64,000 bases of DNA from Nitrospinota bacterium (GCA_046581755.1 JAYGFR010000031.1:11039-75038); one strand, 5' to 3'; shown: positions 5,382 to 51,350, numbered from the stretch's first letter. Program-made: numbers and translations. The notes: generated by a model not told the origin, from the sequence alone.

Positions 5382-5654
5382 ATGAACGATCAAACCGACT
5401 TCCGGAAATTCTACCGCGACGCCCACGCCACCGCGCTTCTGACCGACCGCGAGAAAAAACTCATCGGCATCGCGGTCGCCATCGTCCGAAACTGCCAACC
5501 CTGAGTGGACCACCGCCTGGCGGCCGCCGGGAAAGCCGATATCCCAGAAGAGGTGCTGGACGCCACGTTCGATCTCACCACCGCGGTGATGGCCGGAATC
5601 GGACAGAGCATGAACCGGCGCTACAAGGATTCCCTGAAACCGAAAGAGGGGTAG
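5382..5654 (+). CDS. Putative CMD/AhpD-like selenoprotein, 90 aa, CQPU motif (TGA 5502-5504 read as Sec41)
   Basis: AGGAG RBS at 5371; LTDREKKLIGIAVAIVRNCQP-U-VDHRLAAAGKADIPEE matches the CMD pattern EKELIALAVA..C..C...H...A...G...EE; frame continues to TAG 5652-5654. Absent from the ORF track. Confidence 0.8.
5516..5531 (+). promoter_or_regulatory. Putative bacterial SECIS hairpin
   Basis: CCUGGC-GGCC-GCCGGG, 6-bp stem, loop GG starting +18 after the TGA. Confidence 0.6.
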
Positions 5655-5667
5655 CGGGCGGGGAGGG

Positions 5668-6336
5668 CTAGCGGACCTCGGCGCGGAGAACGTAGACATG
5701 GCGGGCGAGGGATTCCACTAGGCGGGAGGGATCGAAATCCCGGGGAGTGGTGATCTGGACCCGTACCCGCATCGGGCCGCCTTCGGGATCTTTTTTCACG
5801 TCCATCTCCCGGATATCGCAGCGCTCCTTGGAAAGAATGTCCTCGAGCTCCTGGAACATCTCTTCCTCCTCCCCGCCGTTTGCCACAATTTCCAGAAGCT
5901 TGAAGCGGCGCCGCCCGGAAATTCGACGGCCGACTTTTTTGAGCAGGCCCAGCGAAACCAGCATGATCACCACCACCGACACAGCCTCGACGTGGAGGCC
6001 CACTCCCACGGCCAGGCCGATCCCCGCCGTGGTCCAAATGCTCGCCGCCGTGGTCAGCCCCCGCACCGAAGCGCCCATCCGGAGGATGGCGCCCGCCCCC
6101 AAAAAACCGATGCCGCTGACGACCTGGGCCGCGATGCGGCCGGGGTCGTTCGTGGGACTCCCCTCGGCCACGCGCATGGAGACTTCCATGAGCAGGGCGG
6201 AGCCGAGGCAGAGGATGATATGGGTGCGAAGACCGGCGGGCTGATTGTTGCGCTCGCGCTCCAGCCCGATGAGGCCGCCGAGGAAGGCGGCCTCGATCAT
6301 GCGGAAAATGAATCCGATTTGGTCGGGGAGGATCAA
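5668..6336 (-). CDS. MgtC/SapB family protein
   Basis: IGLERE, AGLRTH, DPGRIAAQVVSGIGFLGAG, GLTTAASIW, C-terminal ACT-like domain. Confidence 0.9.
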   Translation of the reverse strand: MILPDQIGFIFRMIEAAFLGGLIGLERERNNQPAGLRTHIILCLGSALLMEVSMRVAEGSPTNDPGRIAAQVVSGIGFLGAGAILRMGASVRGLTTAASIWTTAGIGLAVGVGLHVEAVSVVVIMLVSLGLLKKVGRRISGRRRFKLLEIVANGGEEEEMFQELEDILSKERCDIREMDVKKDPEGGPMRVRVQITTPRDFDPSRLVESLARHVYVLRAEVR

Positions 6337-6337
6337 C

Positions 6338-6964
6338 CTATTTTTTCCCGTGTGGGTTCGGGCGCGCTTTGCGCCGGGAAATTTCTTTTTTGATTTCCGC
6401 CTTGGATTTTCCGTTCACCGGGATGCCGAACACCTCGCCCACCTTGGTCTGCTTGTCGAGCAGGCGCATAAACGCGAGATCCTCGATCTCGGCGAGCACC
6501 ATCTCGCAGGTGCTGAATATGGTGCACCCCTCGACGAGATGGCCGCCGAAGCAGGTCGCCTCGGGTCGGCCCATCGAAATCGTGACGTGGGCATGAAGAT
6601 AGGGCTTGCCGTCCTCGGTCTGGGTGATGTTGCCGCTCATCTGAAGAAGCTCGAGCGGGCCCTCGATGGGAGTGAAGATGCGGCAGTCGTTGTTGATGGG
6701 CCAGGGGTTGGGAAACTGCCATACGTTGCGAAGCGTCGCCCTCCGAAGGCTCGCCGCCACGCTGAGGATCACGCCCGCCTTCACCCCCCGCTCCGCGCAA
6801 ATTTTCAGGGTCGTGCCGTACAAATCGTCGCCCGGGGCCATCCGGATCGTCAGCACGCGCCCGAGGCGCGCCTCCGCCACATCGTAACGGGGCGTGCGCT
6901 TCTTCCAGTCGGTTTCGTCGAAAATCACCTCTTGTGCTTGAGCGAATTTTTTTGTCGCCATCAA
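6338..6964 (-). CDS. PPC/DUF296 domain protein
   Basis: ELLQMSGNI...YLHAHVTIS...GGHLVEG motif. Confidence 0.8.
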   Translation of the reverse strand: MMATKKFAQAQEVIFDETDWKKRTPRYDVAEARLGRVLTIRMAPGDDLYGTTLKICAERGVKAGVILSVAASLRRATLRNVWQFPNPWPINNDCRIFTPIEGPLELLQMSGNITQTEDGKPYLHAHVTISMGRPEATCFGGHLVEGCTIFSTCEMVLAEIEDLAFMRLLDKQTKVGEVFGIPVNGKSKAEIKKEISRRKARPNPHGKK

Positions 6965-7130
6965 CCGTTCCTCTCCTCAAATTGATTCGCATCCCGCGGG
7001 ATGGAAATTGCGATCGCCTCAAACCGTCCAGCCATTCGTGTGTCCGTTTATTCTAGCCCCCCGGATTCTAATCCCAAGCCCGGGGGAATGAAAACCAAGG
7101 GCCGCCATCCCGCAGTCCCCATCGAGGAAC

Positions 7131-8447
7131 CTAATCCCCTCGGTCGAAGCGGACGATCCCGCCCGAAACCGTCGTCCGGACAATCGCCCCGGGACGGAAA
7201 ATATCGGCGAGCGCCACCTCCGCGGCGCCGGGCGGGGGCGCGATGACGGCGAAATCCGCCACCCCGCCGGAGGTCAGCCGGCCCACCCCCTCGTCCGTGA
7301 ACCCCAGGGCCCCGGCGCCGTTCACCGTGCAGATTTCCAGGAGCGCATCCGCCGTCAGGCCCGGGTCCGCCTCCCAGAGCGCCGCCGCCTCATCGAGCAA
7401 CGAGAGCGAAGGGCTGCTCGCCCGGCTGTCCGTTCCGAGGCAGAGCCGGAGACCGGCACGCCGCATCCCGGCGGCATCGGCGAAAGGATGCCCGAAATAG
7501 GCGGTCGACCGGGGACACAGGCAAACCACCGCCCCGGCGCGCGTGAGAAGCTCCCAATCCTCCTCGTCCGTCTGGTTGCAGTGGACCGCCAGATCGATGT
7601 CCTCCAGGACCCCCGCATCGGCCAGGTAGCGCACGGGCGAGCAGCCCGGCGGATCGAAGCCGTTGACCGCGCTCTCCAACGCTTTGTGCATTTCGGCGAA
7701 CGCGCCGCCACCGTCCTTGAGGAACCGCACCTCTTCGGGGCTTTCGGCCAGATGGGTGGCCGAGGGCCAGGTCCGACCGCGCGCCTCCTCGAGCGCCAAG
7801 CGGTAGAGCGGAATCGATGTCGTGTAGGGCGCATGGGGACTGACCCCATCCCTGAGAAATTCCGCCCCGCCACCGGTCTCGCCACCAGTCTCGAACACCC
7901 CATCCGCGGAGGGAAGCCTTTGGCGGACAATCGAATCCGCCTCGGCAGGGGCCAGCCCCAGCACCTCGCTGAACACCACCCCGCGCATCTCCATGAACGA
8001 TAGGATCACCCGGCTGTGGCCCGAGGCCGAAATATCTCCCACACAGGTGACGCCCGAGCCAAACGATGCGATCGCGCCGAGCCGGGAGGAGGAGAGAAAA
8101 AGAGGGGGCGGCCAGCCGCGCGTCTCGCGGACCAGGGCCACGATCCACTCGGCCATCGGCGCGCGCGTGGCCTCGAATCCGCTCAGCTCGAGGTGGGTGT
8201 GGGCGTTCACGAGACCTGGGACGAGAACCGCCCTTCCGAAATTCCGCTCGGGAACCAGCGGCCCCTTGGGGCGGACCTCCGCCTCCGGGCCCACCGCTTC
8301 GATGCGGCCGCCCCGGGTGAGGACCGCTCCGCCGCGAATGGGCGGGCTCCCGGCCGGGCACACGAGATCGGCCCGCCAGAGGTTTTGTCTTCGAGAGGGG
8401 GTCTGCTCCGCGCGGTTTCCGTTTTCCGGGCCGCTAGCTGAGCTCAT
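7131..8447 (-). CDS. Metal-dependent amidohydrolase, probable aminofutalosine deaminase
   Basis: NAHTHLE, SPHAPY, HLAES.EE, LGTDS motifs; co-oriented downstream of mqnC. Substrate is inferred from context. Confidence 0.7.
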   Translation of the reverse strand: MSSASGPENGNRAEQTPSRRQNLWRADLVCPAGSPPIRGGAVLTRGGRIEAVGPEAEVRPKGPLVPERNFGRAVLVPGLVNAHTHLELSGFEATRAPMAEWIVALVRETRGWPPPLFLSSSRLGAIASFGSGVTCVGDISASGHSRVILSFMEMRGVVFSEVLGLAPAEADSIVRQRLPSADGVFETGGETGGGAEFLRDGVSPHAPYTTSIPLYRLALEEARGRTWPSATHLAESPEEVRFLKDGGGAFAEMHKALESAVNGFDPPGCSPVRYLADAGVLEDIDLAVHCNQTDEEDWELLTRAGAVVCLCPRSTAYFGHPFADAAGMRRAGLRLCLGTDSRASSPSLSLLDEAAALWEADPGLTADALLEICTVNGAGALGFTDEGVGRLTSGGVADFAVIAPPPGAAEVALADIFRPGAIVRTTVSGGIVRFDRGD

Positions 8448-8679
8448 GATATTTGCGCGGCCTCAGGAAACCCGTGCCCGGACCCTTCCCGAACCGGTAG
8501 GCCGCGCGCCGGAGACTGGCCAGGTCATGTTCCCAGCGCCAATCGTTGACCTGGAGCCTTGTTCTCAGGCGGCCCGACTCCCACGCACACATGGCGGCGT
8601 AGGCGATCACGAGAGCAACGCCCCAACCGGGGAGGATCAATAAGAGGATTAAACCGAGAACGACGGACAAGGAAGCCAT
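8434..8679 (-). CDS. Small hypothetical membrane protein
   Basis: Two hydrophobic segments; tightly packed between mqnC and the amidohydrolase. Confidence 0.5.
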   Translation of the reverse strand: MASLSVVLGLILLLILPGWGVALVIAYAAMCAWESGRLRTRLQVNDWRWEHDLASLRRAAYRFGKGPGTGFLRPRKYHELS

Positions 8680-8681
8680 GA

Positions 8682-9761
8682 TCAGATCAACTCATAGAAA
8701 AAATTTCGCCGCCGGAGGGTGAAGCCCGCGGCCCCGGCCATGCGGTGAAGATCGGCTTCGTTCAGGCAATGGACCGTACCCGCCGAGCTTACCACGTTCT
8801 CCTCCAACATGGTCGAGCCCATGTCGTTCGCCCCGAAGCGCAGCGAAAGCTCGCCCACCTTCATCCCCTGGGTCACCCAGGAGGATTGGATGTTCTCGAA
8901 GTTGTCCAGGTAGAGGCGGCTGATGGCCAGGGTGCGCAGATACTCGCTGCTGCCCACCGTCTGCGCCTTGAGCGCCGCCGATCCGTCGTTCTGGAACGTC
9001 CAGCAGATAAACGCCGTGAACCCGCCGGTCTCGTCCTGGAGCTCCCGGAGGCGGTCCAGGTGTTCGATCCGCTCGGCGGGGGTTTCGACGTGGCCGAACA
9101 TCATCGTCGCCGACGAGCGAAGGCCCAGCCGGTGCGCCTGGCGCATTACGTCGAGCCAGCCATCCGAATCCACCTTGAGGCGCGCGATTTGGCGCCGGAC
9201 CCGGTCCACCAGAATCTCGCCGCCCCCGCCCGGTATCGAATCGAGGCCCGCCTCCCGGAGGCGGACGATCACCCGCTCGTAGGGAATGTCCTCGAGCTTG
9301 GAGATATGGTGAATCTCGGGCGGGCTCAGCGCGTGGAGATGGAGATCCGGATACTCCATCTTCAGCCAGCGGAACAGATCTTCGTACCATTCGATCCGAA
9401 GGTCCGGGTGATGCCCTCCCTGGAGGAGGATCTGCTTCCCGCCAGCGGCATAGAGCTCGTCCAGCTTTTGGCGAATCTCCTCCTTGGTGCGGATGTAGGC
9501 CTCGGGGTGATCCCCGGGCGGGCGGTAGAAGGCGCAGAAGGTGCAATAGACATCGCAGACATTCGTGTAGTTAATGTTGCGGTCGATGCAGTAGGTGGCA
9601 AAACCTTCGGGGTGCTTTCGGGCGCGGACCTCATCCGCCGCCGCGCCCAGGGCGGGCAGATCGTCTCCCTCGAGCAGGGCCAGGCCCTCCTCCATCGAGA
9701 GCCGCTCGCCCCCGGCTGCTTTTTCCAGCGCCTCGTAAAACGCCGATGTCGCCGTCGTCAT
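8682..9761 (-). CDS. mqnC: Cyclic dehypoxanthinyl futalosine synthase (radical SAM)
   Basis: IDRNINYTNVCDVYCTFCAF, LQGGHHP, FTAFICWTFQ, IQSSWVTQG, GANDMGSTMLEENVVS. Confidence 0.9.
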   Translation of the reverse strand: MTTATSAFYEALEKAAGGERLSMEEGLALLEGDDLPALGAAADEVRARKHPEGFATYCIDRNINYTNVCDVYCTFCAFYRPPGDHPEAYIRTKEEIRQKLDELYAAGGKQILLQGGHHPDLRIEWYEDLFRWLKMEYPDLHLHALSPPEIHHISKLEDIPYERVIVRLREAGLDSIPGGGGEILVDRVRRQIARLKVDSDGWLDVMRQAHRLGLRSSATMMFGHVETPAERIEHLDRLRELQDETGGFTAFICWTFQNDGSAALKAQTVGSSEYLRTLAISRLYLDNFENIQSSWVTQGMKVGELSLRFGANDMGSTMLEENVVSSAGTVHCLNEADLHRMAGAAGFTLRRRNFFYELI

Positions 9762-9856
9762 GATTTCCTCGGATCCGGTCGCCCGGGGTGATATGGAGCG
9801 GGGAGTATACGGGGGTTTCCCCATCCGGGCGAGGGTGGGCATCCTCCCGCCAATTG

Positions 9857-9887
9857 TTGACAAGTCCAGATATTGGGACTATATAAT
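9857..9887 (+). promoter_or_regulatory. Consensus sigma70 promoter with 19-bp spacer filled by a dyad operator
   Basis: TTGACA (9857-9862), TATAAT (9882-9887), palindrome AGTCC-ag-ATAT-tg-GGACT at 9863-9880. Confidence 0.55.
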
Positions 9888-10204
9888 CTTAATATAAAAG
9901 CGCTACCCCCAGCCGGGGTCACCCGGCCCCTCCTCGAATCGGACCATCTGGTACACGCGCCGGTGCCCCTACACCGCCCTGCCCCGGCGGGAAATTCATT
10001 CATCCCATCTCCCCCGCCGGGGTGTTGCCCGCCGGGGTCTTGGAAAAGCATCCTCCATTCTTCTTCCCCTTGGCCATTTATTTCCATACCCGCACTCAAG
10101 CTCCCACCACCACACTCCCCTTGCACCACTCCTCCCAGCCACCACACCTCCCCGAACGCACCGTCCCGCAGCCGGCAGGTTCAAATTTCCCGGTTTTCGC
10201 CCCC

Positions 10205-10247
10205 TTGACGCACATAAAAATTATATATATATTGTATATACTTTTTA
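10205..10247 (+). promoter_or_regulatory. mazEF promoter with AT-rich palindromic operator
   Basis: TTGACG-17-TATATT, overlapped by ATAAAAA...TATATA...TATATA...TTTTTAT inverted repeats. Confidence 0.6.
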
Positions 10248-10265
10248 TTTATGGGGATACTTGCC

Positions 10266-10508
10266 GTGGCCACCCAGATTGGAAAGTGGGGAAACAGCTT
10301 GGCCGTCAGGATTCCATCCGCCCTGGCGGAGCAATTCGGCTTGAAGGAAGGCTCTCCGGTGGAGATCATTACCGACGACCGGGGGCTCCTGGTCCGGAAG
10401 CCCGGCTACCGGCTGGAGGATCTCCTCGCGGGCATCACCCCCGAAAACCTGCCCCAAGAGCCTTCTCCCGGCCCGGCCGTGGGAGGTACGGACGGGGGAG
10501 GCGGATGA
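10266..10508 (+). CDS. mazE: AbrB/MazE-family antitoxin
   Basis: KWGNSLAVRIP, YRLEDLLAGITPEN; start may be the ATG at 10251. Confidence 0.85.
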   Translation: MATQIGKWGNSLAVRIPSALAEQFGLKEGSPVEIITDDRGLLVRKPGYRLEDLLAGITPENLPQEPSPGPAVGGTDGGGG

Positions 10509-10831
10509 GATCCGGTCTCGTCCCGGATCGCGGCGACATCCTCTTCCTGGATGGGGGCGCCGGACAGCGCGGCCGGGCCCCGGCTCTCATCGTCTCGCCC
10601 CGGGCCTACAACCGCGCCACCGGCCTTGCGCTCGCCTGTCCCATTATTCAAACCCCCGGGGGCTATCCGTTCGAGGTGCTCCTCCCCGGCAACCTGGGCA
10701 TCGCCGGAGCGGTCCTCGCCGACCGGCCCCAAAGCCTCGACTGGCGCTCCCGCCGCCCCGAATTCGCCGCCCACGCCCCCAAGGCCGTCCTCGAGGAAAT
10801 CGCCGCGAAGATAGCCATCTTGCTTGAGTGA
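10505..10831 (+). CDS. mazF: PemK/MazF-family toxin (catalytic residues appear degenerate)
   Basis: ATGA overlap with mazE; VPDRGDI, SPRAYN..TGLALACP, GYPFEV, SLDWRSR. Confidence 0.8.
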   Translation: MRSGLVPDRGDILFLDGGAGQRGRAPALIVSPRAYNRATGLALACPIIQTPGGYPFEVLLPGNLGIAGAVLADRPQSLDWRSRRPEFAAHAPKAVLEEIAAKIAILLE

Positions 10832-10941
10832 GGGGGGGGGGATACCCATCAGATTTCATCAATATGATCACACACGGATATCCATTGCACCCGGATGGCG
10901 GGACGCCGGGGGTCGTGCGGAAGTATCGGGCCGGGCCGGCG

Positions 10942-11484
10942 CTAGATACTAATCACCTTCCCGTTGAGCTTGATCTCGCTTTTGAGCGGGACGGCGGCCT
11001 GGACCATGGCTTCGGCGAAACACCCCTGCTTGGCGTTTTTGATGAGGGCGAGGACGCGCTCCTCGGGGGCGTCGGATTCGACGGTGAAGTACGTCCGGGT
11101 TTCGAGGCATTCGGCTTTCACGGTGCCCCTCAGGACGGAGCCGGAGAGAAGGTAGTCCATCTCGACGCGGACCTTGCTGCTCTTGTATTCGATTTTCATC
11201 ATGCTCGCGTACCGCGAGAGTTGGGTGAGCAGTCAGAAGCCGACTCCCATGCAGATGTAGGTGAGGGGCTGGGGGTGCTCGTCCTTTCCGCCCAGATCGG
11301 CGGGCTCGTCGCACATGACCTCGAAGTGGCGGTGTCGGCCGACCTTGAGCTGGGAGCCCGGGGGCGCCTCGGTGTCGGCGAACTGCTTGACCAGAAGGCC
11401 CTGCCGGGGGAGCTCGGGTTTGTCGATCACCCGCTCGCCGGGGGCGGTGCTCATGTCGCGGTGGAGGAGGGGCTTATCGTTCAT
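10942..11484 (-). CDS. Putative OsmC-like selenoprotein 1, 180 aa (TGA 11233-11235 read as Sec84)
   Basis: Two same-frame ORF-track fragments join as CDEP..LGG....P.PLTYICMGVGF-U-LLTQLSRYA; second catalytic Cys in AKQGCFAE; GAGG RBS. Confidence 0.85.
11204..11218 (-). promoter_or_regulatory. Putative bacterial SECIS hairpin
   Basis: CUCGC-GGUAC-GCGAG, loop GG at +20 after the TGA. Confidence 0.7.
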
Positions 11485-11521
11485 GGGACGCCTCTTCAAG
11501 AAAAAGGAATTGGAGCTGGGC

Positions 11522-12943
11522 TCATCCGACCGGCGGCCGAAGCGCCCGGATTTCCGGGGTCGCACTCTCGTAGGCATGGGCGCACCGGAGCGCGGCGGCC
11601 TCGCGCCAGGGGGCGGTGACGATGTCGAGCGAAAGGGGCAGGCCGATTTTGTTCAGCCCCATGGGCACGACCAGCGAGGGGCAGCCGGTCATGTTGTGGC
11701 AGGAGAGAAACGGGCGGTGGAGGTAGCTGAAGGGAAGGTCTCGCCCGTTCATCTCGGCCATCAGGGTTTCGATGGGCGGGGCGGCGCAGGGGACCGAGGG
11801 CATGATCATGGCGTCGGCATCTTTTAAAAACGCGGCCGCCTCGCGCCGGAGCAGGACCCGCTCTCGCATGGCGTGGACATAATCGTCCAGCGGAATCTGG
11901 GCCGACCACTCGTAGCGCTCGCGCACGTCGTCTCCATAGCCATCGGGGTTTTCCTCGTAATACGGCCGGTGAAACGCGGCGAACTCGGGCCCGGCGATCT
12001 TGGGAAACAGCTCCCCGAAGCGGCCGGCGTTCGGGAAGGAGACCTCCTCGATATTCGCGCCCAGATCCCGGAACACAATCGCCGCACGGGCGAAGGCCTC
12101 TAAAATCTCGGAGTCCACCTCGGAGTTAGAGTAAAAATCAGGACAAATAAAAATCCGGCTGCCCGCGACGCCCTTGTCGATCCCCTCGGTGTAATCGGGC
12201 ACGGAAACGTCCCGCGTTTTCGAATCCAGCGGATCGAAACCGGCCATGACGTTCAGGAACATCGCCGCGTCTTTTGCGCTGCGCGTCATCGGGCCGCAAT
12301 GGTCCAGGCTCAGGACGTTCGGGCAGATCCCCCGGATGCTCACCCGCCCGTGGGTGGGCTTGAGGCCGACGATGCCGCAAAAGGCCGCCGGGGTGCGCAC
12401 CGATCCGCCCGTGTCGGTGCCCAGCGCGGCGGGGATCATGCCCGCCGAGACCGCCGCCGCCGAGCCGCCGCTCGAGCCGCCGACGATACGATCCGGGTTC
12501 CAGGGATTGTGCGAGGTGCCCCAGTGGGGGTTGATGGTGGTCGATGCGGCGGCGAACTCGTGGGTATGGGTCTTCCCGATCAGGATGGCCCCGGCCCGCT
12601 TGAGGCGGGCGATGACTTCGGCGTCCTCTGCGGGCACGTTGTCCCGGTGGAACGATGATCCGTTCGTGGTGCGGATTCCGGCGGTGTCGATGATGTCCTT
12701 CGCACCGTAGGGGATGCCGTGCAGGGGGCCCCGATAGCGGCCCGCGGCGATTTCGTCTCCGGCCCGCCGGGCCTCCTCCATCGCCAGCTCGCCCGTGACG
12801 GTCAAAAAGCCCAGGTACTCTTCGTTCAGCGCCTCGATGCGCCCCAGGAGGGCCTCGACGATTTCGGCCGGGGAGAGAGAGCGGTTTTTAATTTTCCCGG
12901 AGAGCTCGAATACGCTCAAATCGCAAAGGGCATCATCCACCAC
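11522..12943 (-). CDS. Amidase signature (GatA-like) family amidase
   Basis: GPLHGIPYGAKD, GGSSGGS, GTDTGGSVRTPA; GTG start after GGAG. Confidence 0.9.
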   Translation of the reverse strand: MVDDALCDLSVFELSGKIKNRSLSPAEIVEALLGRIEALNEEYLGFLTVTGELAMEEARRAGDEIAAGRYRGPLHGIPYGAKDIIDTAGIRTTNGSSFHRDNVPAEDAEVIARLKRAGAILIGKTHTHEFAAASTTINPHWGTSHNPWNPDRIVGGSSGGSAAAVSAGMIPAALGTDTGGSVRTPAAFCGIVGLKPTHGRVSIRGICPNVLSLDHCGPMTRSAKDAAMFLNVMAGFDPLDSKTRDVSVPDYTEGIDKGVAGSRIFICPDFYSNSEVDSEILEAFARAAIVFRDLGANIEEVSFPNAGRFGELFPKIAGPEFAAFHRPYYEENPDGYGDDVRERYEWSAQIPLDDYVHAMRERVLLRREAAAFLKDADAMIMPSVPCAAPPIETLMAEMNGRDLPFSYLHRPFLSCHNMTGCPSLVVPMGLNKIGLPLSLDIVTAPWREAAALRCAHAYESATPEIRALRPPVG

Positions 12944-12972
12944 GGCAGCCACTCCTCCCAGATTTTGGCTGG

Positions 12973-21861: not shown

Positions 21862-22725
21862 CTATTTCGCCGCGGCCCTGGCTTCTTCCTCTTCCTTCAT
21901 CCGTTTCAGGAACACGGGCGCGGGAGTGTCCGGGCGCCACTTGGTCTGATCCGGAGGCTCGGGCCACTCATAGGGAAGATGGACATACGTATTCGGCCCC
22001 TTCGCCGATTCGAGCAAATCGGCCATGCCGCCGCAGATTCTCCGCTGCCCCTCGCGGTCGCCCACATCTCCAATCTGGCGGCCGAAGGGATACTGGATAA
22101 ACGCGGCGCGCGGGACGGCGACCTTCTCCGTCATCCCGGGCACGTTGCTGAGAGAAACCGTGGCGATTCCCGCCCTTTCGATTTCGCGCTGAAGCAGTCC
22201 GCCGGACCGGATGCAAAGCGGTCAGACGGGAATGAGAAAAACCGCATCCACCTTCTCGGACTTCATTTTTTCGACCATCAGCGGCGCCGTGCGCTTGATC
22301 AGCGGGTTGAAGTTGGGGATGTAGCCCATGATGGAATAGAGCGTATCGGCGAGGCTCCCGATTTTTCCCTCGCTCTCGTAGTCGTTGAAAATGTCCACCG
22401 GCCAGGCCACGTTCCGGTCCTTGGCCATAAAGCTCGTGTCGATGTGCAGATGGCTGTACTCCACATCGTCCTGGCCCGCCGTTCGCGGAATCTCTCGGTG
22501 GCTGGGGTCGCCCCAGGTCGGCTCGGCCCGCTCACGATCATAGTCGAACGACACATCCCCTTTCGCAAAGATTCCGGCCGTGGAAACCAGCGTCACGCGG
22601 CATTCCGAAAGCGGCTTGGAGAGCGGCGTCCAGGGCGTTTCCGCCGGGTCGTTGGCCCGCATTTGCTCGATACGATCCTTTTGCCCGGGGTGAAAAAACA
22701 AACTGTCGACTTTCGTGATCGCCAT
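21862..22725 (-). CDS. Putative PrdB/GrdB-family (proline/glycine reductase selenoprotein B-like) selenoprotein, 287 aa (TGA 22222-22224 read as Sec168)
   Basis: AAGGAG RBS; PLSECRVTLVSTAG, GDPSHREIP, VDAVFLIPV-U-PLCIRSGGLLQREIERAGIATV, PRAAFIQYPFGR; frame continuous through the TGA. Confidence 0.88.
22195..22209 (-). promoter_or_regulatory. Putative bacterial SECIS hairpin
   Basis: CGGUCC-GGC-GGACUG, loop GG at +19 after the TGA. Confidence 0.65.
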
Positions 22726-32178: not shown

Positions 32179-32190
32179 CCTCGAGACCCG

Positions 32191-34354: not shown

Positions 34355-35728
34355 ATGAGCAGCACTGCCACCCGGGGTGATCTCACCGGGACAATCCACA
34401 CGGCCGAGGTCGAGACCATCGCCGCAGGCGGGGCCGGCGTCGCCCGCCTCGACGGGCGCGCGGTTTTCATTCCGCGCACCGTTCCCGGCGACAGGGTCAG
34501 CTTCCGCATATTAGCCGACAAGGGAAGATTCCTCCGGGGCGAATTCGAGGAGATCGCCCGCGCGGGAGCCGACCGGCGCGATCCCCCCTGCCCAGACTGG
34601 GCCGAATGCGGCGGCTGCCCTCTTCAGCAAATGACGCCCGGCGGACAGACCGAGGCGAAGAGTCGTATATTTCTGGATGCGCTTTCGCGGATCGGCAAGA
34701 TCGAAACCTTAGTCCAGCCCCAACTCCTCAAGGACACCGCCCCCGAGTTCGCCTACCGGATTCGTGCGCGGTTTCAGATCAAAGGAGATGCCATCGGTTT
34801 CTTTGCCCCGGGAACGCGAGACCTGATTCCGGTCAATTCCTGCCTCCTGACCGAGGAGCCGGTTTCGGCGGCCTTCGACGATATTAGGCAGCTTCTCCAA
34901 GAAGAGCCCGCCGCGCGCGGAATCGAATCGGTCGAGATCACTTCGCTGGACGAAGATCCGGATATGGGCGCTGGCCTTCTTATCTACCCTATCGGAACCC
35001 GGGACCGGGGAAAAGGAACCCTTTCGGGCAAGACCCGCCAGGCCTGGAGGTCTTTCAGCCGCTCCAGCGGCCGGCCCCTCGCGGTCGCCGGAGAGCGGAC
35101 GCCGGAGGAGGCTCCCCGGTGGACGGCGCGGTATGAGTTGGACGCACCGGCGGGCAGGCCGCTTTCGCTGCGGGTCTCTCCCGAATCTTTTTTGCAGGCC
35201 AACCGCTCGGTCAACCGGCTGCTCGTTCAGGCCGTAACTACGGGGGCGGCGCTTCCCAGGGATGGACGCGCGGTGGACCTGTACTGCGGGGCGGGCAATT
35301 TTTCGATCCCGTTGGCCATGATCGCCGGGCGCGTGGTGGGCGTCGAATCCAGCCCCTTCGCCATCCGGGACGCCGAGGCGAACGCCCGCGAGGCCGGCCT
35401 GGATAACCTGCGCTTTATCCAGGGCGAATCCGGGCGGATCGAAGCGGACGAAATCCTGGATGCGCTGGGCGACGGCACGCCCGATCTGTTGCTCCTCGAT
35501 CCGCCCCGGCGCGGGGCGCTCGAGACAGTCCCGCTCATACTGAGGTTGATGCCCGGGCAAATCATCTACGTCTCGTGCAATCCCGCCACGTTTGCCCGCG
35601 ACGCACGGGATCTCACCGAAGGAGGCTACCGCATGGAGACGGCGCTGATCGCCCCCATGTTTCCCAATACCGCCCACGTCGAGTCCGTCACCTGGTGGAA
35701 GCGCGAGAACGCTCCCGCCCCTGGTTAA
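34355..35728 (+). CDS. 23S rRNA m5U methyltransferase family (RlmD/TrmA-like, TRAM domain)
   Basis: C....ECGGC, SFLQAN, DLYCGAGNF, DPPRRG, YVSCNPATFARD, MFPNTAHVE. Confidence 0.88.
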   Translation: MSSTATRGDLTGTIHTAEVETIAAGGAGVARLDGRAVFIPRTVPGDRVSFRILADKGRFLRGEFEEIARAGADRRDPPCPDWAECGGCPLQQMTPGGQTEAKSRIFLDALSRIGKIETLVQPQLLKDTAPEFAYRIRARFQIKGDAIGFFAPGTRDLIPVNSCLLTEEPVSAAFDDIRQLLQEEPAARGIESVEITSLDEDPDMGAGLLIYPIGTRDRGKGTLSGKTRQAWRSFSRSSGRPLAVAGERTPEEAPRWTARYELDAPAGRPLSLRVSPESFLQANRSVNRLLVQAVTTGAALPRDGRAVDLYCGAGNFSIPLAMIAGRVVGVESSPFAIRDAEANAREAGLDNLRFIQGESGRIEADEILDALGDGTPDLLLLDPPRRGALETVPLILRLMPGQIIYVSCNPATFARDARDLTEGGYRMETALIAPMFPNTAHVESVTWWKRENAPAPG

Positions 35729-43011: not shown

Positions 43012-43148
43012 GCCAGATAATCCCGAATCGATCAGAGCGTTTGATGTAGGACCGCAGAGTAACCCTACAAGTATGGTCGGGTGGGTTCTTCGGTGTCAAC
43101 GGTAGGGCTATGGTATATTGAGGCGGCCATAAAGGAGGGATTCGGCGA

Positions 43149-43709
43149 ATGCAAAAGCGCATTGCCGCGTGTTTCGGCATCCTTGCAGCAGCCGCCGCCC
43201 TGGCGGGATGCGGAACCCGCTACGAGCGCTTCATCTCATCGCGTCCCGGCGGCGGGATCGTCCGGATTATCGCCAAGCCAAGCCAGATCGTATTTCCGGC
43301 AGCGCTCCGGGTCATGCACGACACAGGGGAGGAAATCTGGGAGGCCGATTAAAAGGCCGGCCGGATCGTCTCTATCAGCGCCCTCGGCCCGCGGGCCGTT
43401 TTTTTCACCCCCCTTTCCCATGGCAGGACCCGGGTCGAAATCTCCTCCGACCTACCCAGTTCCTTCTTCAGAGGGGGTATCGTCGGGCCAGGCAATTTTT
43501 TTATTTTGCTGCGAGAACAGATCGTCGCCTAAGAGAAGAAGGCGGGATTCAGAAAATCAGAACTCAAAAAAAGAAAAGTCGATGCCGACCTTCGAACGAA
43601 ATTCAAGCAGAAAGTAACTCCCGAGGAAGAGCGCCCTCCGGCCGCGGAGCCGGCGCCCCCGCCCGCGCCGCCGGGCCGGTTTCAAAGGTTCCGGAGAAGA
43701 TACAACTAG
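43149..43709 (+). pseudogene. Putative lipoprotein with two in-frame TAA stops (43350, 43530)
   Basis: AAGGAGG RBS, lipobox ALAGC; the frame reads as plausible protein through both stops to TAG 43707. Confidence 0.5.
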
Positions 43710-43733
43710 CCTCCCCGCCCGGCCGGTGAAATC

Positions 43734-44519: not shown

Positions 44520-44534
44520 CAAATACCTCCCACG

Positions 44535-44963
44535 TTAGGAATCATTGCCTTCGGCGATCTCGACGAAATAGCGCATCACGTCGATTTCGGTAATGATTCC
44601 AAGTAGTTCACGGTCATTGTTGACCACGGGAAGACACCCGATTCTCATCTCGAGCATGCGCTTGGCCGCGTGCACGACTGGCTCGTTCGGATCGGCCAGC
44701 TTCACATCCTTGACCATCACCTTCTCGACATCGGTAGCCTCTAGCAGCTCTTTGCGATCCTCTTTGGAGAAATTGATCCCCGAGGAAAGTTTCGCGCGGA
44801 GCAGGTCTCGTTGGGTCACCAGGCCGACGACAAAACCCCCTTTAGTCACCGGCATGTGGCGGATATCTCCACTCGACATGATCTCATCGACGAGATCCAG
44901 TTTTTCATCGAGGCTGATGGTGACAACGCCCGTGGTCATAATTTTACTGACACGTTCATCCAA
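44535..44963 (-). CDS. CBS domain pair protein
   Basis: IRHMPV, IGCLPVV, GIITEID. Confidence 0.85.
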   Translation of the reverse strand: MDERVSKIMTTGVVTISLDEKLDLVDEIMSSGDIRHMPVTKGGFVVGLVTQRDLLRAKLSSGINFSKEDRKELLEATDVEKVMVKDVKLADPNEPVVHAAKRMLEMRIGCLPVVNNDRELLGIITEIDVMRYFVEIAEGNDS

Positions 44964-44984
44964 AAATTTCCCCCCTGGCGCCGG

Positions 44985-45851
44985 TCAAGAACCGCCTCCA
45001 CCTCCCCGGGGTACGGCGAGAACCAGCGCCGGCACAATTCTTCCAGCCAAGAAAGTCAAATATCCATCTCCCTGAACCACCAACTGGGAACTCGACCCCC
45101 CATCGAGGTTCATCGCCTCAATTGCCCCCAGGCCGCCATCCGGCTCGGAGCGGACCAAAAAATTCTGAAGTTCGCACCAGGAGATCCCGCGCCCGATTTC
45201 CTCGCTCACCATGAAAATGAGGCGCCCTTTTTCCCCGAATGCCAAGATCGTCCGCCTGTCCGCTCGGCGGTACTCGCGGTATGCGTCCAGCCCGGGGTCG
45301 GGCCGCCCCCCGCGCACGAGATAGGGGCCGGCCTGAAACGCCTCCCGAACCCCTTTCGAATCGAAATCCTCGCGGGTTGCGATACCCACCTTTCCGGAAC
45401 CTTTCAAGACGTAAAAAACCGCTCCCAAGTGAAGCGCCCGCCGCCGTCCCCGGAAAAGAAGGCGGCTGTTGAAAATCGTATCGGCCGTGCGGAAGTAGCC
45501 GAGCGGCCTTCCTTTTTCGTCGAAATATCCCGCGTTCACCACAACGGCGGCCTTGGTCATCTGCGCAATTATGCGCACGGCCTCGGACCTTATATTTTTG
45601 CCCGCCTGCCACCTGAGCCGAATATCGAATTGATCCGGATCGAGCCGCGCCGCGGTCATCCTTGAGGTGGTGCCATCCTCGAAACGGATTTGAATCTTTC
45701 TGACTTCCATCCCCGGGCCAATGGTGCGCCAAGTGTTTATTCCGCCTACCAAGCGGGTCTTACAGCCATCTTCCGAAGCATGGGCGGTGGCAACGGCGGC
45801 GATGAAAATCGCCGCCGCGAAGGACAACCCGGCATTCCGGAATTTGACCAC
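44985..45851 (-). CDS. Phosphodiester glycosidase (NAGPA-like) exported protein
   Basis: Signal peptide; VNAGYF, QAGP.LV, AMNLDGGSS. Confidence 0.8.
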   Translation of the reverse strand: MVKFRNAGLSFAAAIFIAAVATAHASEDGCKTRLVGGINTWRTIGPGMEVRKIQIRFEDGTTSRMTAARLDPDQFDIRLRWQAGKNIRSEAVRIIAQMTKAAVVVNAGYFDEKGRPLGYFRTADTIFNSRLLFRGRRRALHLGAVFYVLKGSGKVGIATREDFDSKGVREAFQAGPYLVRGGRPDPGLDAYREYRRADRRTILAFGEKGRLIFMVSEEIGRGISWCELQNFLVRSEPDGGLGAIEAMNLDGGSSSQLVVQGDGYLTFLAGRIVPALVLAVPRGGGGGS

Positions 45852-45914
45852 GGCCCCCCCCCCTTCGCTCCCTACCAGCGTATTATGAGCCTTTCCTGAC
45901 GACGAAGCCCCCCG

Positions 45915-47564
45915 TCAAAATCCAACGGCGCAACCGTCCCTGCGATGGTCCGACCCGCCCATGTAAGCGTCCCCCGGCATGCGAACAATCCCCTGCCCGC
46001 CTCCGAAGCCCTCGTAACCGCCGCTCCGAGCCACATCGTGGCCTCTTTCGCGAAGGTCTTCGAGCACATCGTCCGGAACGCCGCCCTCGATGGCGACCTC
46101 CCGGCCCTCCAGGATGCGAAACCGGGGCGCCTCGATAGCCTCCTGAATGTTCATGCCAAAATCCACCATGTTGGACAGGACCTGGACATGGCCCTGGGGC
46201 TGCATGTCACCTCCCATGATGCCGTAGCTCATCCACGGCTCACCGTCCTTCATCACGAATCCGGGGATGATGGTATGAAACGGCCGCTTCCCGGGCGCGA
46301 TGCAATTGAGATGGCCCTCCTCCAGTTCGAAGCCGAAACCTCGACTCTGGAGCATGATCCCCGTATCGCCCGCCGTGACGCCGGATCCGAAATGATGGAA
46401 AAGGCTGTTGATGAAGGAGCACATGTTTCCGTCGCGGTCTGCGGTGGTGAGATAGATCGTGTTGCTCGATCTCGGCGGGGAGCCGGAAACAGGATCGCCG
46501 GCCACGTCCGCCAGAATCAATTCGCGCCGGCTTTCGGCATACGCCTTGGACAAAAGCCCCTCCAGAGGGACTTCGGCCTGCGCCATATCGGTGATGTACT
46601 TCCCCCTGTCCGCGAAGGAGAGCTTCATCGCCTCGATGAGACGGTGGAGATGATCCGCACAGCCGTAGCTGTAATCCGACAGCGGATACCCTTCGAGAAT
46701 GTTCATGCAAATGAGAGCGGCAAGCCCCTGGCCGTTCGGAGGAATCTCGCAAAGCTCATAACCCCGGTAGTTCGTCCGGATGGGCTCGACCCAGGTGCAG
46801 CGGGTGTCCGCGAAATCCTCCATTTCGAACAGGCCGCCCAGTTCCCCCGAAGCGGCTACAATCGCCTCGGCCACCGGCCCGTGGTAGAAGGCTTCTCTTC
46901 CGCCATCGGCCAGGAGCCGGAACGTGGCGGCCAGATTTGGATTCCGGAACACTTCACCCACCTTCGGCGCCCGCCCGCCAGGAAGATAGGTCCGCTTCGA
47001 GGCTTCGAAGGAGGAGAGTTTCTCTTCCTGCATTCGCCAGGCGTTTCCGATGATGGGCGTCACCGGAAATCCATTTTCCGCGTAATGGATGGCCGGGGCC
47101 AGCAGATCGGTCATCGATTTTTTTCCGCTCCCGAACCGATCGAGCGCCGAGCACCAGCCGTCGAACGCGCCCGGCACGGTGACCGCAAAAATCCCCTTCT
47201 GGGGAGCGATGGTGAACCCCTCGCTCCGGTAGCGCTCCAGGGTGGCGGCGCGGGGGGAGCGGCCGCTCGCGTTCAGGCCGGCAAGTTGCTTCTGGGCGGC
47301 ATCCCAATAGATCAGGAACATGTCGCCGCCGATGCCGGTGGACTGGGGCTCCACTACGTTGAGCGCGGCCGCGCCGGCGATGGCGGCGTCCATCGCGTTC
47401 CCTCCCTCCCGGAGGATCTGAAGGGCCGCAATGGCGGCGAGGGGCTGGCTGGTCGCCACCATTCCCTCTTGCGACAGGACCGGAGAGCGGCCCGCGGGCA
47501 AGGAGGTTTTCGTTGTCGGCGGCAGCCTTTTTGTTTTCGAGTCCAAAAGCATTGTCTGGCTCAT
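45915..47564 (-). CDS. ggt: Gamma-glutamyltransferase
   Basis: GGNAMDAA, GIGGDMF, PPNGQG, NTIYL autocleavage Thr, PGKRPFHTIIP, GGDMQPQGH. Confidence 0.92.
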   Translation of the reverse strand: MSQTMLLDSKTKRLPPTTKTSLPAGRSPVLSQEGMVATSQPLAAIAALQILREGGNAMDAAIAGAAALNVVEPQSTGIGGDMFLIYWDAAQKQLAGLNASGRSPRAATLERYRSEGFTIAPQKGIFAVTVPGAFDGWCSALDRFGSGKKSMTDLLAPAIHYAENGFPVTPIIGNAWRMQEEKLSSFEASKRTYLPGGRAPKVGEVFRNPNLAATFRLLADGGREAFYHGPVAEAIVAASGELGGLFEMEDFADTRCTWVEPIRTNYRGYELCEIPPNGQGLAALICMNILEGYPLSDYSYGCADHLHRLIEAMKLSFADRGKYITDMAQAEVPLEGLLSKAYAESRRELILADVAGDPVSGSPPRSSNTIYLTTADRDGNMCSFINSLFHHFGSGVTAGDTGIMLQSRGFGFELEEGHLNCIAPGKRPFHTIIPGFVMKDGEPWMSYGIMGGDMQPQGHVQVLSNMVDFGMNIQEAIEAPRFRILEGREVAIEGGVPDDVLEDLRERGHDVARSGGYEGFGGGQGIVRMPGDAYMGGSDHRRDGCAVGF

Positions 47565-47584
47565 TCGAAAAATAACTCCAAGCA

Positions 47585-48649
47585 CTAAAAAGAATCGGGG
47601 GGGGGTTGTCCCTTCAGGAACACGGACTCAATACATCTTTCGCCGTCCGGCGAGACGGCGAGGGCATCCGGCCCGACGATGCACCGCTCCAAGGATACCT
47701 TCTCCCCGACCTCCGCCCCAGGAAACAACACCGAATGTACGACCGAGGCGCCCTCGCCCAGAGTAGCACCGCCTCCCAAAACCGCGAAAGGGCCGGCGGA
47801 GGCTCCCCGGCCCAGGCGCACCCCTTTTCCGATCAGAACGGGCGGATGGACCACGCCCCCGCCCCAATCCATGGAGGGCCCTTCCACCAGCACATCCCCT
47901 CCGGCGGGCCAATCCATCCCGGGGACAAACCGCCCGGCGAGCAGATCGTCTGCGGCATCCAGATACCGTGCCGGCGTGCCAACGTCGGCCCAGTAGGAAT
48001 TCGTCACCAGCGCGCCGATGAGGGCGCCCCCTTCGATCAAGGGGGGATACACCTCCTCGGAAATCCCGCAAGGACGCCCCGGGGGGATGTGGTCGAGAAA
48101 TTCTGGAGATAAAACGCTCTGCCCGGTAAACATCCCCTCGGTCAGGGCGCCGGCGGGCTGGCCGGGCGCCTCGGCCCGGAGAAACCTCCGGAGCCGCCCC
48201 GCCTTATCCACGGCCAGTAGACCGAATTTTTCCGCTTCCGGCGACGTGCGCAAAACCAGTGTCGCCAGGAATCCGCCCGCCTGATGGCGGGCCAGCGCCA
48301 CCTCCAGATCGGCATTGCTTATGATATCGGCGTTTAATACGAAAAACGGCCCGCCAGTCTCCCGCAGGAAGGCTTCCGCCTGTTTAATCCCACCCGCCGT
48401 TCCCAATATCTCGGGCTCGAACGAGTAGCGGATCTCTACGCCACAGGCCGATTCCCCGAGTTCTGCCCGAATCGCCTCGGCCCGGTGATGGAGGTTCACG
48501 ACGGCTTCCTTCACGCCCGCCCGGCGGAGCCTGTCCAGAGCAAACCGGATCACCGGCACGCCGCCCAGAGGCAAGAGCAGCTTGGGCACCGATTCGCCGA
48601 GCGAGCCCATCCGGACGCCGAGGCCCGCCGCTAGGACAAAAGCGCGCAT
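47585..48649 (-). CDS. NDP-sugar pyrophosphorylase (nucleotidyltransferase plus hexapeptide repeats)
   Basis: LAAGLG.RM, PK.LLP, E...LGTAGG, WADVGTP. Confidence 0.85.
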   Translation of the reverse strand: MRAFVLAAGLGVRMGSLGESVPKLLLPLGGVPVIRFALDRLRRAGVKEAVVNLHHRAEAIRAELGESACGVEIRYSFEPEILGTAGGIKQAEAFLRETGGPFFVLNADIISNADLEVALARHQAGGFLATLVLRTSPEAEKFGLLAVDKAGRLRRFLRAEAPGQPAGALTEGMFTGQSVLSPEFLDHIPPGRPCGISEEVYPPLIEGGALIGALVTNSYWADVGTPARYLDAADDLLAGRFVPGMDWPAGGDVLVEGPSMDWGGGVVHPPVLIGKGVRLGRGASAGPFAVLGGGATLGEGASVVHSVLFPGAEVGEKVSLERCIVGPDALAVSPDGERCIESVFLKGQPPPDSF

Positions 48650-48824
48650 CGCCAGCCCAAAATGAACCTCTCCAAATGGCGGCGAACGATTTCATGCCAC
48701 AGGCACCCCGCCCGGCCGAAAGCAATGGCGCAATTTCTTTCAATCGGCATGGGTCAAAGCCGCCTGTCCGGGGGGGGCGAATGTGAAAAGATGGATTCGC
48801 ACGGACGGCCGCTGGACCGGTGTC

Positions 48825-49730
48825 TTAATCGGAGGAATTCCCGTTTTTCCTGCGGCGGAAGAACGATTGGATCTCATCCGCAAGCTCTTCGCCCGAGGGC
48901 AACTCCTCGGGTTCCGTGCCTTGGGCTTCCTCGTCTTCGTCCAGGTCCTTCTTGGCCCGGGTATTCCACAGATCCGTCTGGGAGAGAAGGCGAGCAATTC
49001 CGGGCCGATCTTCGATGGCTTCCTTTATCTGGGAATCAAACTGATCCACCGACTTTTGCAGTTCGCTCAGGTCGAACCGAACCTCTCCAGTGGCCCCGAG
49101 ACGATCCAGAAGGGCATGAGCCGCCTTTGGATTCGGCAGCGAGGAGATGTAATGCGGGATATTGGCCCAAAGGCTCACCGCCGGAATCCGCGCATTCTGG
49201 AACTGGGTATGAATCACGCCCACGATGCCGGTCGGACCCTCGTATTTGGTTGCCGCCACCCCGGTGCGATCCGCCAGGCTGGGGTCGGTCGCCAGGCAAA
49301 CCAATTCGGGCGGTTCGGTGTGGGACAGTCCTGCCAGCAAGGCACCCATGGTCACCGCCAGGCGCGATTTGCACACCTGGACAAGTTCGAGAACATCCTG
49401 GCTGAACGTCTTCCACCTGAGTTGCGGCTCCACACCGACGCACACCACCAGGTCGCGCGATAGGTCCGGATGCTTGCAATAATAAAACGCGTTCTCGGGC
49501 CAGGAGATCTTACGGTTTCCATCCCTATCGAGCCGGACGAGGGGCCGTTGGTCCGAATACTGAAAAAATTCATCCGGTCCAAACCACGCGAAGCGCTTGC
49601 CTCTGTATTGATTGATCAGGAACCGCGCGGCGATGGTCGCCGACCGGGCGGCATCGTTCCATCCCTCAAAAGCCAGAACAAACATCGGATCGCGGAGTTC
49701 TGGAAGGATCTCGATGTGAAGATTTTTCAT
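48825..49730 (-). CDS. PAC2 (proteasome assembly chaperone) family protein
   Basis: AFEGWNDA, GVEP.LRW, YEGPTGIVGV, WANIPHY...PNPKA. Confidence 0.85.
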   Translation of the reverse strand: MKNLHIEILPELRDPMFVLAFEGWNDAARSATIAARFLINQYRGKRFAWFGPDEFFQYSDQRPLVRLDRDGNRKISWPENAFYYCKHPDLSRDLVVCVGVEPQLRWKTFSQDVLELVQVCKSRLAVTMGALLAGLSHTEPPELVCLATDPSLADRTGVAATKYEGPTGIVGVIHTQFQNARIPAVSLWANIPHYISSLPNPKAAHALLDRLGATGEVRFDLSELQKSVDQFDSQIKEAIEDRPGIARLLSQTDLWNTRAKKDLDEDEEAQGTEPEELPSGEELADEIQSFFRRRKNGNSSD

Positions 49731-49881
49731 TGTGGAATTCTCTCCGGATCAGGCAGCCGGCCGGTAACAGGCCCCATATCGGAATTTCATTTTACCCTCG
49801 GCTCCCGGCTCACCTCAAGGCAAGCCCGGGAAGAGGGCGGGCGAAACCCGCTATCTGACACCGGACATTCGCTTTCAGGAC

Positions 49882-50775
49882 CTATCCGGCCTGCCCCGAG
49901 GGATGCTCGCCGAGGGCGTCGTAAACGATCCCGACGCCGTTTTTCTGGAGCAAATAAGCCCTGTCGCCCAGGACGCGAGGATGCTCAAGGCCGGGTCGAT
50001 CGATGTAATTCACCCGCTCCTGGACCTCCTCGCGACCGAGCCCGAGATCCTTGAGCTTCTTCACCTCCCCAATGACGTCGAACATCCTTTGCCGCTGGCG
50101 GGGAATTTCATCTTTCCGGCAAGGGCCGCCGTGTCCCGGCACGTACCAGTCCACGTCGAGGGATTCCAGCAAGGCGAGCGATTCGAACCACTCCCAGACC
50201 GCAGCCGAATGGAAGAAGGGATAATTGCCGGGGGTGATGTTGTCCGCCGTGAAGACAACGCGGGCCTCCACGGCGTGAACGACCGTCTGGCCCCGCGTGT
50301 GGCCGGGCGAGAATATGAGATGAAAGGTTTGGCCGCCGAGCCGAAGCGTCATCCGGCTGCGAAAAGTGATGTCCGGCCAGCGGATTTCGTACCCATCGAG
50401 GAGAGGCCCGCACTCGGGATCGTAAAACAGCATGCGCTCCTTGGCCACCTCGACGGAGGGAAGCGAGGTCAGGAAGTCGGAATAGGTCACCTCGCTCGAA
50501 ATGATCGTCCCTCCCCCCAGATACCAGTTCGATGCGATGTGATCTTGATGATGTTCGGTGTTGATGTGGTAGCGGAGGGGCCCTTTCGAAGCAATGAAAT
50601 CACGCCATTCGATCGCGTCGCTGGGCTTCATGGGGCCGTCGATGGCGACGACGCCCTCGGAGGTGATCACCATCCCCACTGTGGGGTAACGGTTCATGTA
50701 AAAAACCTGGTCGGTCAATGAGTCCATCGCTGCCTCACTGGGGGGCGGGAGAGCCGGATTTACAGGCGTGCCCAT
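49882..50775 (-). CDS. MBL-fold hydrolase (cyclase-like)
   Basis: INTEHHQDH, PGHT, VFTADN, VPGHG. Confidence 0.8.
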   Translation of the reverse strand: MGTPVNPALPPPSEAAMDSLTDQVFYMNRYPTVGMVITSEGVVAIDGPMKPSDAIEWRDFIASKGPLRYHINTEHHQDHIASNWYLGGGTIISSEVTYSDFLTSLPSVEVAKERMLFYDPECGPLLDGYEIRWPDITFRSRMTLRLGGQTFHLIFSPGHTRGQTVVHAVEARVVFTADNITPGNYPFFHSAAVWEWFESLALLESLDVDWYVPGHGGPCRKDEIPRQRQRMFDVIGEVKKLKDLGLGREEVQERVNYIDRPGLEHPRVLGDRAYLLQKNGVGIVYDALGEHPSGQAG

Positions 50776-50795
50776 CCTCCCGTGCCGGCCCCCTG

Positions 50796-51350
50796 TTATC
50801 CTGAAATCCCTTCGAGCTCCAAGGGCTCGCCGTTCAGTTCGATTTCACTTTTGAGCGGGACGGATGACTGGATCATCCGCTCGGCGTAGCAACCCTGCTT
50901 GGCGTTCCGGATAAGCAGAGCGATCTTCTCGGGCGGGGCACCGCTTTCCACCCGGAAAATCGTTCGCGTCTCTGTGCACCCGGACTCGACCGTCCCCTTC
51001 AATACCGAACCACGCAAAAAATAGTCCATCTCCACCCGACAACTCGCCTTGGTGATCTCGATTTTCATCATGTGCGCGTACCGCGCCAGCTGGGTGAGCA
51101 GTCAGAAACCCACCCCCATGCAGATATAGGTGAGAGGCTGGGGATAGCAATCCTGCCCCCCGATTCGGGGCGGCTCATCGCAAAACACCTCGAACTTCTC
51201 CTTCCGCCCCACCTTGATCTGGCCGTCGCCGCTCCACTCGGTCTCCGCCCATTGGTAGGAAACCGTCCCTTGGGGCGGAAGCTCGGGCTTGTCGATGAGC
51301 CGCTCCCCGAGAACGGCACTGAGCTCTGTCGTCACTATCGGTTTTTCCAT
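50796..51350 (-). CDS. Putative OsmC-like selenoprotein 2, 184 aa (TGA 51102-51104 read as Sec83)
   Basis: Same-frame fragments join as PQPLTYICMGVGF-U-LLTQLARYA; AKQGCYAE; clear paralogue of 10942-11484 with the TGA at the same codon. Confidence 0.87.
51071..51088 (-). promoter_or_regulatory. Putative bacterial SECIS hairpin
   Basis: UGGCGC-GGUAC-GCGC(A)CA, loop GG at +20; the U-A pair of paralogue 1 is replaced by G-C. Confidence 0.7.

Follow-up and report, generated by a model that had tools for sequence, protein, structure and literature searches.

Four genes in a 64,000-nucleotide stretch of DNA from a Nitrospinota bacterium (GCA_046581755.1 JAYGFR010000031.1:11039-75038; termed the window) each contain one in-frame TGA codon at the position of a redox cysteine (Cys). 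With high confidence, these TGAs are genuine, conserved codons and are most probably decoded as selenocysteine (Sec; U) by the organism's own machinery, aided by a downstream hairpin. The predicted products are one CMD/AhpD-like protein (CxxU), two OsmC-related proteins that carry Sec in place of the peroxidatic Cys (UxxT) and a single, stand-alone PrdB/GrdB-like protein (UxxC), and all four are best read, from motif and fold, as thiol/selenol redox proteins. Recoding of UGA to Sec in all four genes had been proposed earlier from the window alone. This original prediction is supported by a complete Sec machinery in the genome, by retention of TGA in 60 of 60 loci of the three families and by Cys at the aligned site in more distant homologues.

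The window forms the final 64 kb of the 75,038-bp contig C208 in a 4.22-Mb assembly (G000) that comprises 400 contigs and is an estimated 96.5% complete. The genome encodes tRNA-Sec, SelA, SelB and SelD, which together define the Sec-decoding trait. The tRNA-Sec gene on contig C264 reaches 73.8 bits (gathering score 47), and ARAGORN identifies it as tRNA-SeC with the anticodon tca. The selA and selB genes adjoin each other on contig C136 and score 569.8 and 374.7 bits, respectively, with 1-580 of the 581 model positions matched in selB. The selD gene on contig C268 scores 335.4 bits and carries one in-frame TGA of its own; all three proteins exceed their curated cut-offs. No sel gene is found in the 64-kb window, as had been stated at the outset, and the sole SelB-like match there is a BipA GTPase (54.5 bits).

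The four genes and their conserved TGA codons

The TGAs had been placed at positions 5502, 11233, 22222 and 51102, and translation with TGA as U locates all four as claimed. Each frame contains exactly one internal TGA, downstream of which the frame stays open and family-like. Gene 1 (5382-5654, plus strand) encodes a 90-residue CMD/AhpD-like selenoprotein, in which the TGA at 5502-5504 would specify U41 in NCQPUVDH and generate a CQPU (CxxU) motif. Its product passes the Pfam CMD model (PF02627; 27.7 bits, gathering cut-off 23). It lies far under the cut-offs of all the specific NCBIfam selenoprotein models with which it aligns and fails the GSU3128 family (seleno)protein model NF041047 (21.8 bits, cut-off 110). 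Gene 2 (10942-11484, minus strand; 180 residues) and gene 4 (50796-51350, minus strand; 184 residues, with an alternative ATG start at 51386) encode two OsmC-related selenoproteins that share the sequence GVGFULLTQ with a ULLT (UxxT) motif. Their TGAs occupy plus-strand positions 11233-11235 (U84) and 51102-51104 (U83), and the products score 162.2 and 168.3 bits, respectively, against the NCBIfam model NF041052 'OsmC-related (seleno)protein' (cut-off 95). Gene 3 (21862-22725, minus strand) encodes a 287-residue PrdB/GrdB-like selenoprotein, whose TGA at 22222-22224 corresponds to U168 in IPVUPLC and yields a UPLC (UxxC) motif. The protein passes the Pfam GRDB model (PF07355; 42.2 bits, cut-off 22), falls just under the subfamily model TIGR01918 (64.5 bits, cut-off 65.45) and fails the PrdB equivalog model TIGR04483 (120.4 bits, cut-off 300), to which it aligns over positions 19-234 of 238. 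A sequence search of the PDB with this protein gave no match.

Conservation of the TGA codons was analyzed in 41 genomes, consisting of G000 and 40 relatives, and the codon aligned to Sec was extracted from the 20 best loci of each of the three families. The codon is TGA in all 60 loci, 57 of which belong to other genomes, with 20 of 20 for both the CMD and the PrdB-like genes. OsmC-type matches, 3-12 per genome, occur in 31 of the 41 genomes, and each of the 24 relatives from the same family has them. Among the OsmC-type matches listed, every one that covers residue 83 with at least 42% identity has one TGA; those that lack a stop codon are fragments missing residue 83 or paralogues of at most 32% identity. 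PrdB-like matches are present in 32 of the 41 genomes. The CMD type matches in 25 genomes, with one TGA in each of the 25 matches listed, and among the 41 genomes is confined to the same family and one sister family. G000 itself holds six Sec-type OsmC loci (contigs C208, C226, C358, C202 and C381), one of which, on C381, is split between two frames. Distant PrdB-like paralogues of 36-39% identity in relatives (G023:C17, G021:C8, G018:C254 and G012:C19) contain two in-frame TGAs within the match.

The TGA codons had been assigned to the catalytic Cys/Sec position, and a conserved redox Cys indeed aligns with U in each of the three families. For the OsmC genes, the counterpart of U in PDB entries 3cje and 2opl is the first conserved Cys of the fold, and a Cys is also found at this site in a distant OsmC paralogue of G000 itself. 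The U residue of gene 1 aligns with the second Cys of the CxxC motif in the CMD proteins of PDB entries 3bey and 7y4r. For gene 3, Cys occupies the U position in a PrdB-like homologue from genome G025 that is 37% identical.

As negative controls, in-frame TGAs within Pfam domains of three non-redox enzyme genes of G000 (pyrB, enoyl-CoA hydratase and 2-hydroxyacid dehydrogenase) were used. These codons are present in no relative's match and are thus private to G000, which demonstrates that the search separates conserved from private TGAs. The three loci (L133:8101-8523, L141:103-525 and L100:14010-14432; contigs C86, C175 and C174) likely represent assembly errors or private nonsense variants, as judged from their distribution.

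Hairpins downstream of the TGA codons

A hairpin follows each TGA, as had been proposed, and is described here with the U of UGA as nucleotide 1. The gene 1 hairpin (5516-5531, plus strand; nucleotides 15-30) has a 6-bp stem (CCUGGC/GCCGGG) and a GGCC loop, with a folding free energy (ΔG) of -9.4 kcal/mol and a spacing of 17 nucleotides between UGA and loop. Its first loop base lies 18 nucleotides past the A of UGA. In gene 2 (11204-11218, minus strand; nucleotides 18-32), a 6-bp stem (CUCGCG/CGCGAG) closes a GUA loop (ΔG -7.3 kcal/mol, spacing 20 nucleotides). The gene 3 hairpin (22195-22209, minus strand; nucleotides 16-30) pairs CGGUCC with GGACUG around a GGC loop (6 bp, ΔG -6.0 kcal/mol, spacing 18 nucleotides), and that of gene 4 (51074-51086, minus strand; nucleotides 19-31) combines a 5-bp stem (GCGCG/CGCGC) with a GUA loop (ΔG -6.2 kcal/mol, spacing 20 nucleotides).

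Compensatory changes back the stems of the OsmC and CMD families; that of the PrdB-like family is conserved. In an alignment of 23 OsmC family sequences, 97.8% of the cells are paired and three of the six pairs have changed on both sides. The covariation score is reached by none of 500 shuffles, and partners slid out of register pair in 9-74%. Pair 20-30 is C-G in 15 sequences, G-C in seven and A-U in one; here, an amino-acid change (Ala/Gly/Glu) is coupled to a synonymous change in an Ala codon three codons on. The gene 2 hairpin has U19-A31 and C18-G32, where paralogues have G19-C31 and U18-A32. Among 18 distinct CMD orthologue sequences, 100% of the cells are paired and two pairs have changed on both sides, a result that is matched by two of 500 shuffles. 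The 18 distinct PrdB-like orthologue sequences are paired in 99.1% of the cells.

Decoding would proceed in the following manner. The tRNA-Sec, SelA, SelB and SelD of the genome would decode the TGAs as Sec, guided by a hairpin that starts 11-15 nucleotides past the codon. With the ribosome on UGA, the complex of SelB and Sec-tRNA(Sec) would engage the G(G/U) loop at the hairpin apex, 17-20 nucleotides past the codon. Docking of SelB on the apical loop has been worked out for E. coli fdhF. The bulged U and the long lower stem of the fdhF selenocysteine insertion sequence (SECIS) are not established for the window hairpins.

Weighing the readings of the four codons

The TGAs could instead be nonsense mutations, marks of pseudogenes or assembly errors, with the two halves of each frame dead or forming separate genes. 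G000 does contain private TGAs, as in the three control genes, and in public gene calls each half counts as a protein of its own. However, all 57 loci from other genomes have TGA at the aligned codon, across protein identities of 42-86% and always at the redox Cys position, which renders this explanation very improbable. For gene 3, sequence error was also addressed with independent assemblies. At least half of the sampled words of its region occur in 14 sequencing runs, and contigs from three DNA runs, each from a different study, span 22222-22224 with no differing letter listed there. If TGA were reassigned genome-wide to Trp or Gly (genetic codes 4 and 25), an in-frame TGA would also be read through, and nothing specific to this genome speaks for such a change. 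Only 251 of the 110,861 TGA triplets in G000 have an in-frame coding signal on both sides, and many of these clearly mark the end of one gene ahead of the next. Moreover, homologues have Cys rather than Trp or Gly at the aligned site, and the complete Sec machinery is present; reassignment can be practically dismissed.

The original prediction further held that the four genes share one SECIS geometry, with GG at +18, +20, +19 and +20. These positions hold when counted from the A of UGA with the G23-C27 pair of the OsmC hairpins left open (loop GGUAC), but closing this pair leaves a GUA loop at +21. The hairpins do resemble one another, with loops that start with G 18-21 nucleotides past the A of UGA, G+C-rich stems of 5-6 bp and loops of 3-4 nucleotides, as a special lineage-specific element would. 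Such a geometry is nevertheless unlikely, as all of these values fall inside the general bacterial SECIS model (loop of 3-9 nucleotides, stem of 4-16 bp, G at the first two positions of the loop and spacing of 16-37 nucleotides; PMC13188914). The four hairpins fit its loop, stem and spacing ranges and share its small apical loop with G at the first two nucleotides. Other supported selenoprotein genes of G000 vary more widely, with loop starts at nucleotides 19 to 27 and loops of 3-8 nucleotides, and no Rfam match is found in the 64-kb window at the gathering threshold. The likeness among the four is thus that of the general bacterial SECIS.

Several observations weigh against decoding of the four codons as Sec. 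Sec insertion is predicted from sequence. A contig from an RNA library (run X15) that covers the gene 3 TGA reaches 13 nucleotides beyond the codon, too few to bridge it under the rule applied; contigs of this library also lie on stretches of gene 3 before and after the codon. When 60 nucleotides from each UGA were folded as single sequences and the minimum free energy (MFE) was compared with that of shuffled sequences, the z-scores were -0.33, -2.51, +0.80 and +0.89 for genes 1-4, so that three of the four are no better than shuffles. The hairpin described above is the MFE element in gene 2 and the centroid in gene 4, and other, overlapping hairpins are preferred in genes 1 and 3. The published model (PMC13188914) uses -7.5 kcal/mol, a stability that only the minimal hairpin of gene 1 reaches and the other three do not; this figure possibly refers to a longer element. 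Both double-sided changes in the CMD stem come from one divergent sequence, and the PrdB-like stem has no double-sided change among its 18 sequences and is uninformative for covariation. The genome is a 400-contig assembly with an estimated contamination of 2.99%. In addition, a strict hairpin follows 1002 of 8724 (11.5%) ordinary in-frame TGC, TGT or TGG codons in long open reading frames of G000. Because hairpins are this common after control codons and the fold energies of three of the four genes are no better than those of shuffles, hairpin geometry alone is weak evidence, and support for the elements comes from the comparison with relatives.

The Sec genes had also been expected to be broken or missed by standard gene callers, and this is observed. 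Under the standard code, a simple open reading frame caller reports two pieces for each of genes 2, 3 and 4 and, instead of gene 1, a spurious frame on the opposite strand. In exact look-ups, five of ten truncated pieces are found as separate proteins, all unnamed, in the NCBI, JGI/IMG, ENA or Logan collections. Gene 2 is represented there by both of its halves, genes 1 and 3 by the N-terminal piece and gene 4 by the C-terminal one. Since the truncated halves are unnamed in public collections, the redox and detoxification capacity of this marine lineage is under-read.

Known families and the wider selenoproteome

The four genes are new members of known families in a lineage that is already published as selenoprotein-rich. 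In the Sargasso Sea data of 2005 (PMC1088965), PrdB is represented by 42 genes (UxxC), CMD domain-containing proteins by four (CxxU) and OsmC-like proteins by three (UxxT), and 'Proline reductase PrdB' is the third most abundant selenoprotein family. The Global Ocean Sampling (GOS) survey (2008) contains 235 PrdB sequences (PMC2398784) as well as CMD/AhpD-like selenoproteins, and a 2026 review tabulates the OsmC, CMD and PrdB families (PMC13188914). Genes 2 and 4 share the UxxT motif and Sec at the first conserved Cys with the OsmC-like family (Zhang, Fomenko & Gladyshev 2005, PMC1088965; NF041052), from which nothing defining differs, and the type is multi-copy in the lineage of G000. Gene 1 likewise has the CxxU motif of CMD/AhpD-like selenoproteins, with Sec at the second Cys of CxxC (PMC1088965), but differs in being very short (90 residues). 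Three GTDB UBA8248 'Nitrospinota' metagenome-assembled genomes (MAGs) with 54, 50 and 48 selenoprotein genes are among the top ten bacteria by selenoprotein gene number in BSepDB (2026; PMC13326102, Table 2). Their counts are similar to that estimated for G000 below, and the PrdB-like locus L144, whose protein is 80% identical, carries the isolate name of the 54-gene MAG. The four genes therefore extend the biology only a little, since their families and SECIS type have been published before, as has the abundance of selenoproteins in the lineage.

Gene 3 resembles D-proline reductase PrdB and the marine PrdB selenoproteins in its UxxC motif and its nearly full model alignment, but differs in missing the equivalog cut-off and in having no PrdA-type partner alongside. 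PF09338 matches in the genome occur on contigs C256 and C60 only. Because the equivalog score fails and PrdA/GrdE-type genes lie only on other contigs, gene 3 does not, on model scores and gene positions, strictly qualify as a subunit of D-proline reductase. Contigs C256 and C60 (L113:1-3649 and L090:1-1443) carry two pairs of a GrdE/PrdA-type gene and a full-length GrdB-like (Sec) gene, one of them with GrdA (Sec); these clusters are of the glycine-reductase type, in a lineage labelled Nitrospinota. In the window, the neighbors of gene 3 are a Zn-dependent dehydrogenase, an SDR protein and a DUF1207 protein. Among 19 relatives' loci for each gene, the Zn-dependent dehydrogenase adjoins the PrdB-like gene in 4, an MBL-fold gene adjoins the OsmC gene in 2 and MgtC adjoins the CMD gene in 8. 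These neighbors are kept in close relatives only, and the neighborhood was set aside as a functional clue, with no functional link drawn.

The number of selenoprotein genes in G000 was estimated from the 251 TGAs with a codon-usage signal in frame on both sides. A strict hairpin is found in 57 of these candidates (22.7%), compared with 11.5% of the control codons. Among the 57, a Pfam alignment spans the TGA in 34, a GRDB model ends just before it in three, one is selD and three more show an NCBIfam alignment across the TGA under the cut-off, which brings the supported total to 41. Scanning of 52 hairpin-negative candidates revealed four clear cases, GrdA and three CMD proteins. The remaining 142 candidates, all without a strict hairpin, were screened by paralogy only, and in five of them the TGA aligns to that of a supported paralogue. 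Approximately 50 supported selenoprotein genes are thus present in 4.22 Mb, a lower bound from a rough screen. They include CMD/AhpD-like, OsmC, UGSC, peroxiredoxin and thioredoxin-like, DsbA and glutaredoxin proteins, as well as deiodinase-like, GrdA/GrdB, rhodanese, MGMT, MerB-like, ArsM-like and CYCXC families. The earlier suggestion of a selenoprotein-rich organism agrees with this count, but its basis is overstated, since four genes per 64 kb is approximately 5-fold the genome average and cannot be extrapolated to the whole genome. In terms of annotation, the four genes and approximately 46 others in the genome are split or lost in ordinary gene calling. A fifth candidate in the window, with a TGA near 35229 on the minus strand and a hairpin, was rejected on its weak coding signal, low-complexity translation and absence of a Pfam match.

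Conserved Sec codons in CoA-related, MetE-like and DUF442-like genes elsewhere in the genome are useful leads. On contig C378 (L128:10987-13893, minus strand), one operon has an in-frame TGA in each of two genes, a CoA-transferase subunit-A-like gene (TEHAUASILAG) and a YccU-like CoA-binding gene (VMDLUIMVEH). It also contains a subunit-B-like gene and a second subunit-A paralogue, in which Cys stands where the first has U (VEHVCYTVIAG). The subunit-A-like TGA is kept in the orthologues of nine relatives, and the YccU-like TGA is kept in four same-genus orthologues. A MetE-like gene of the B12-independent methionine-synthase type (L126:1-1164, contig C371, plus strand) has a TGA at FHLURGN, where U presumably takes the position of a zinc-ligand Cys. 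This TGA occurs in three of the four closest homologues, and the paralogues lack the stop. In a DUF442/TIGR01244-type sulfur-transferase-like gene (L110:1-501, contig C245, minus strand), the TGA lies in HUMASGRAG, an HCxxGxxR-like motif (HUxxGxxR), and is present in 12 of the 12 matches listed in relatives. A text search of the main text of PMC13188914 did not find the CoA-transferase-A-like, YccU-like, MetE-like or DUF442-like Sec families. It is conceivable, though we hold it only tentatively, that the hidden selenoproteome includes these four as families absent from current catalogues. If they are both real and unlisted, selenium use would extend past the classic thiol redox proteins into acyl-CoA and methyl-transfer chemistry.

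Further in-frame TGAs inside Pfam domains of G000 are found in FAD_binding_2 (contig C225), SDR (C290), response regulator (C41), cNMP-binding (C35) and HDOD (C263) genes. Three deiodinase-like/redoxin paralogues (L117:9100-9522, L118:67-489 and L129:178-600) have the Sec site GAITUPPYR in common.

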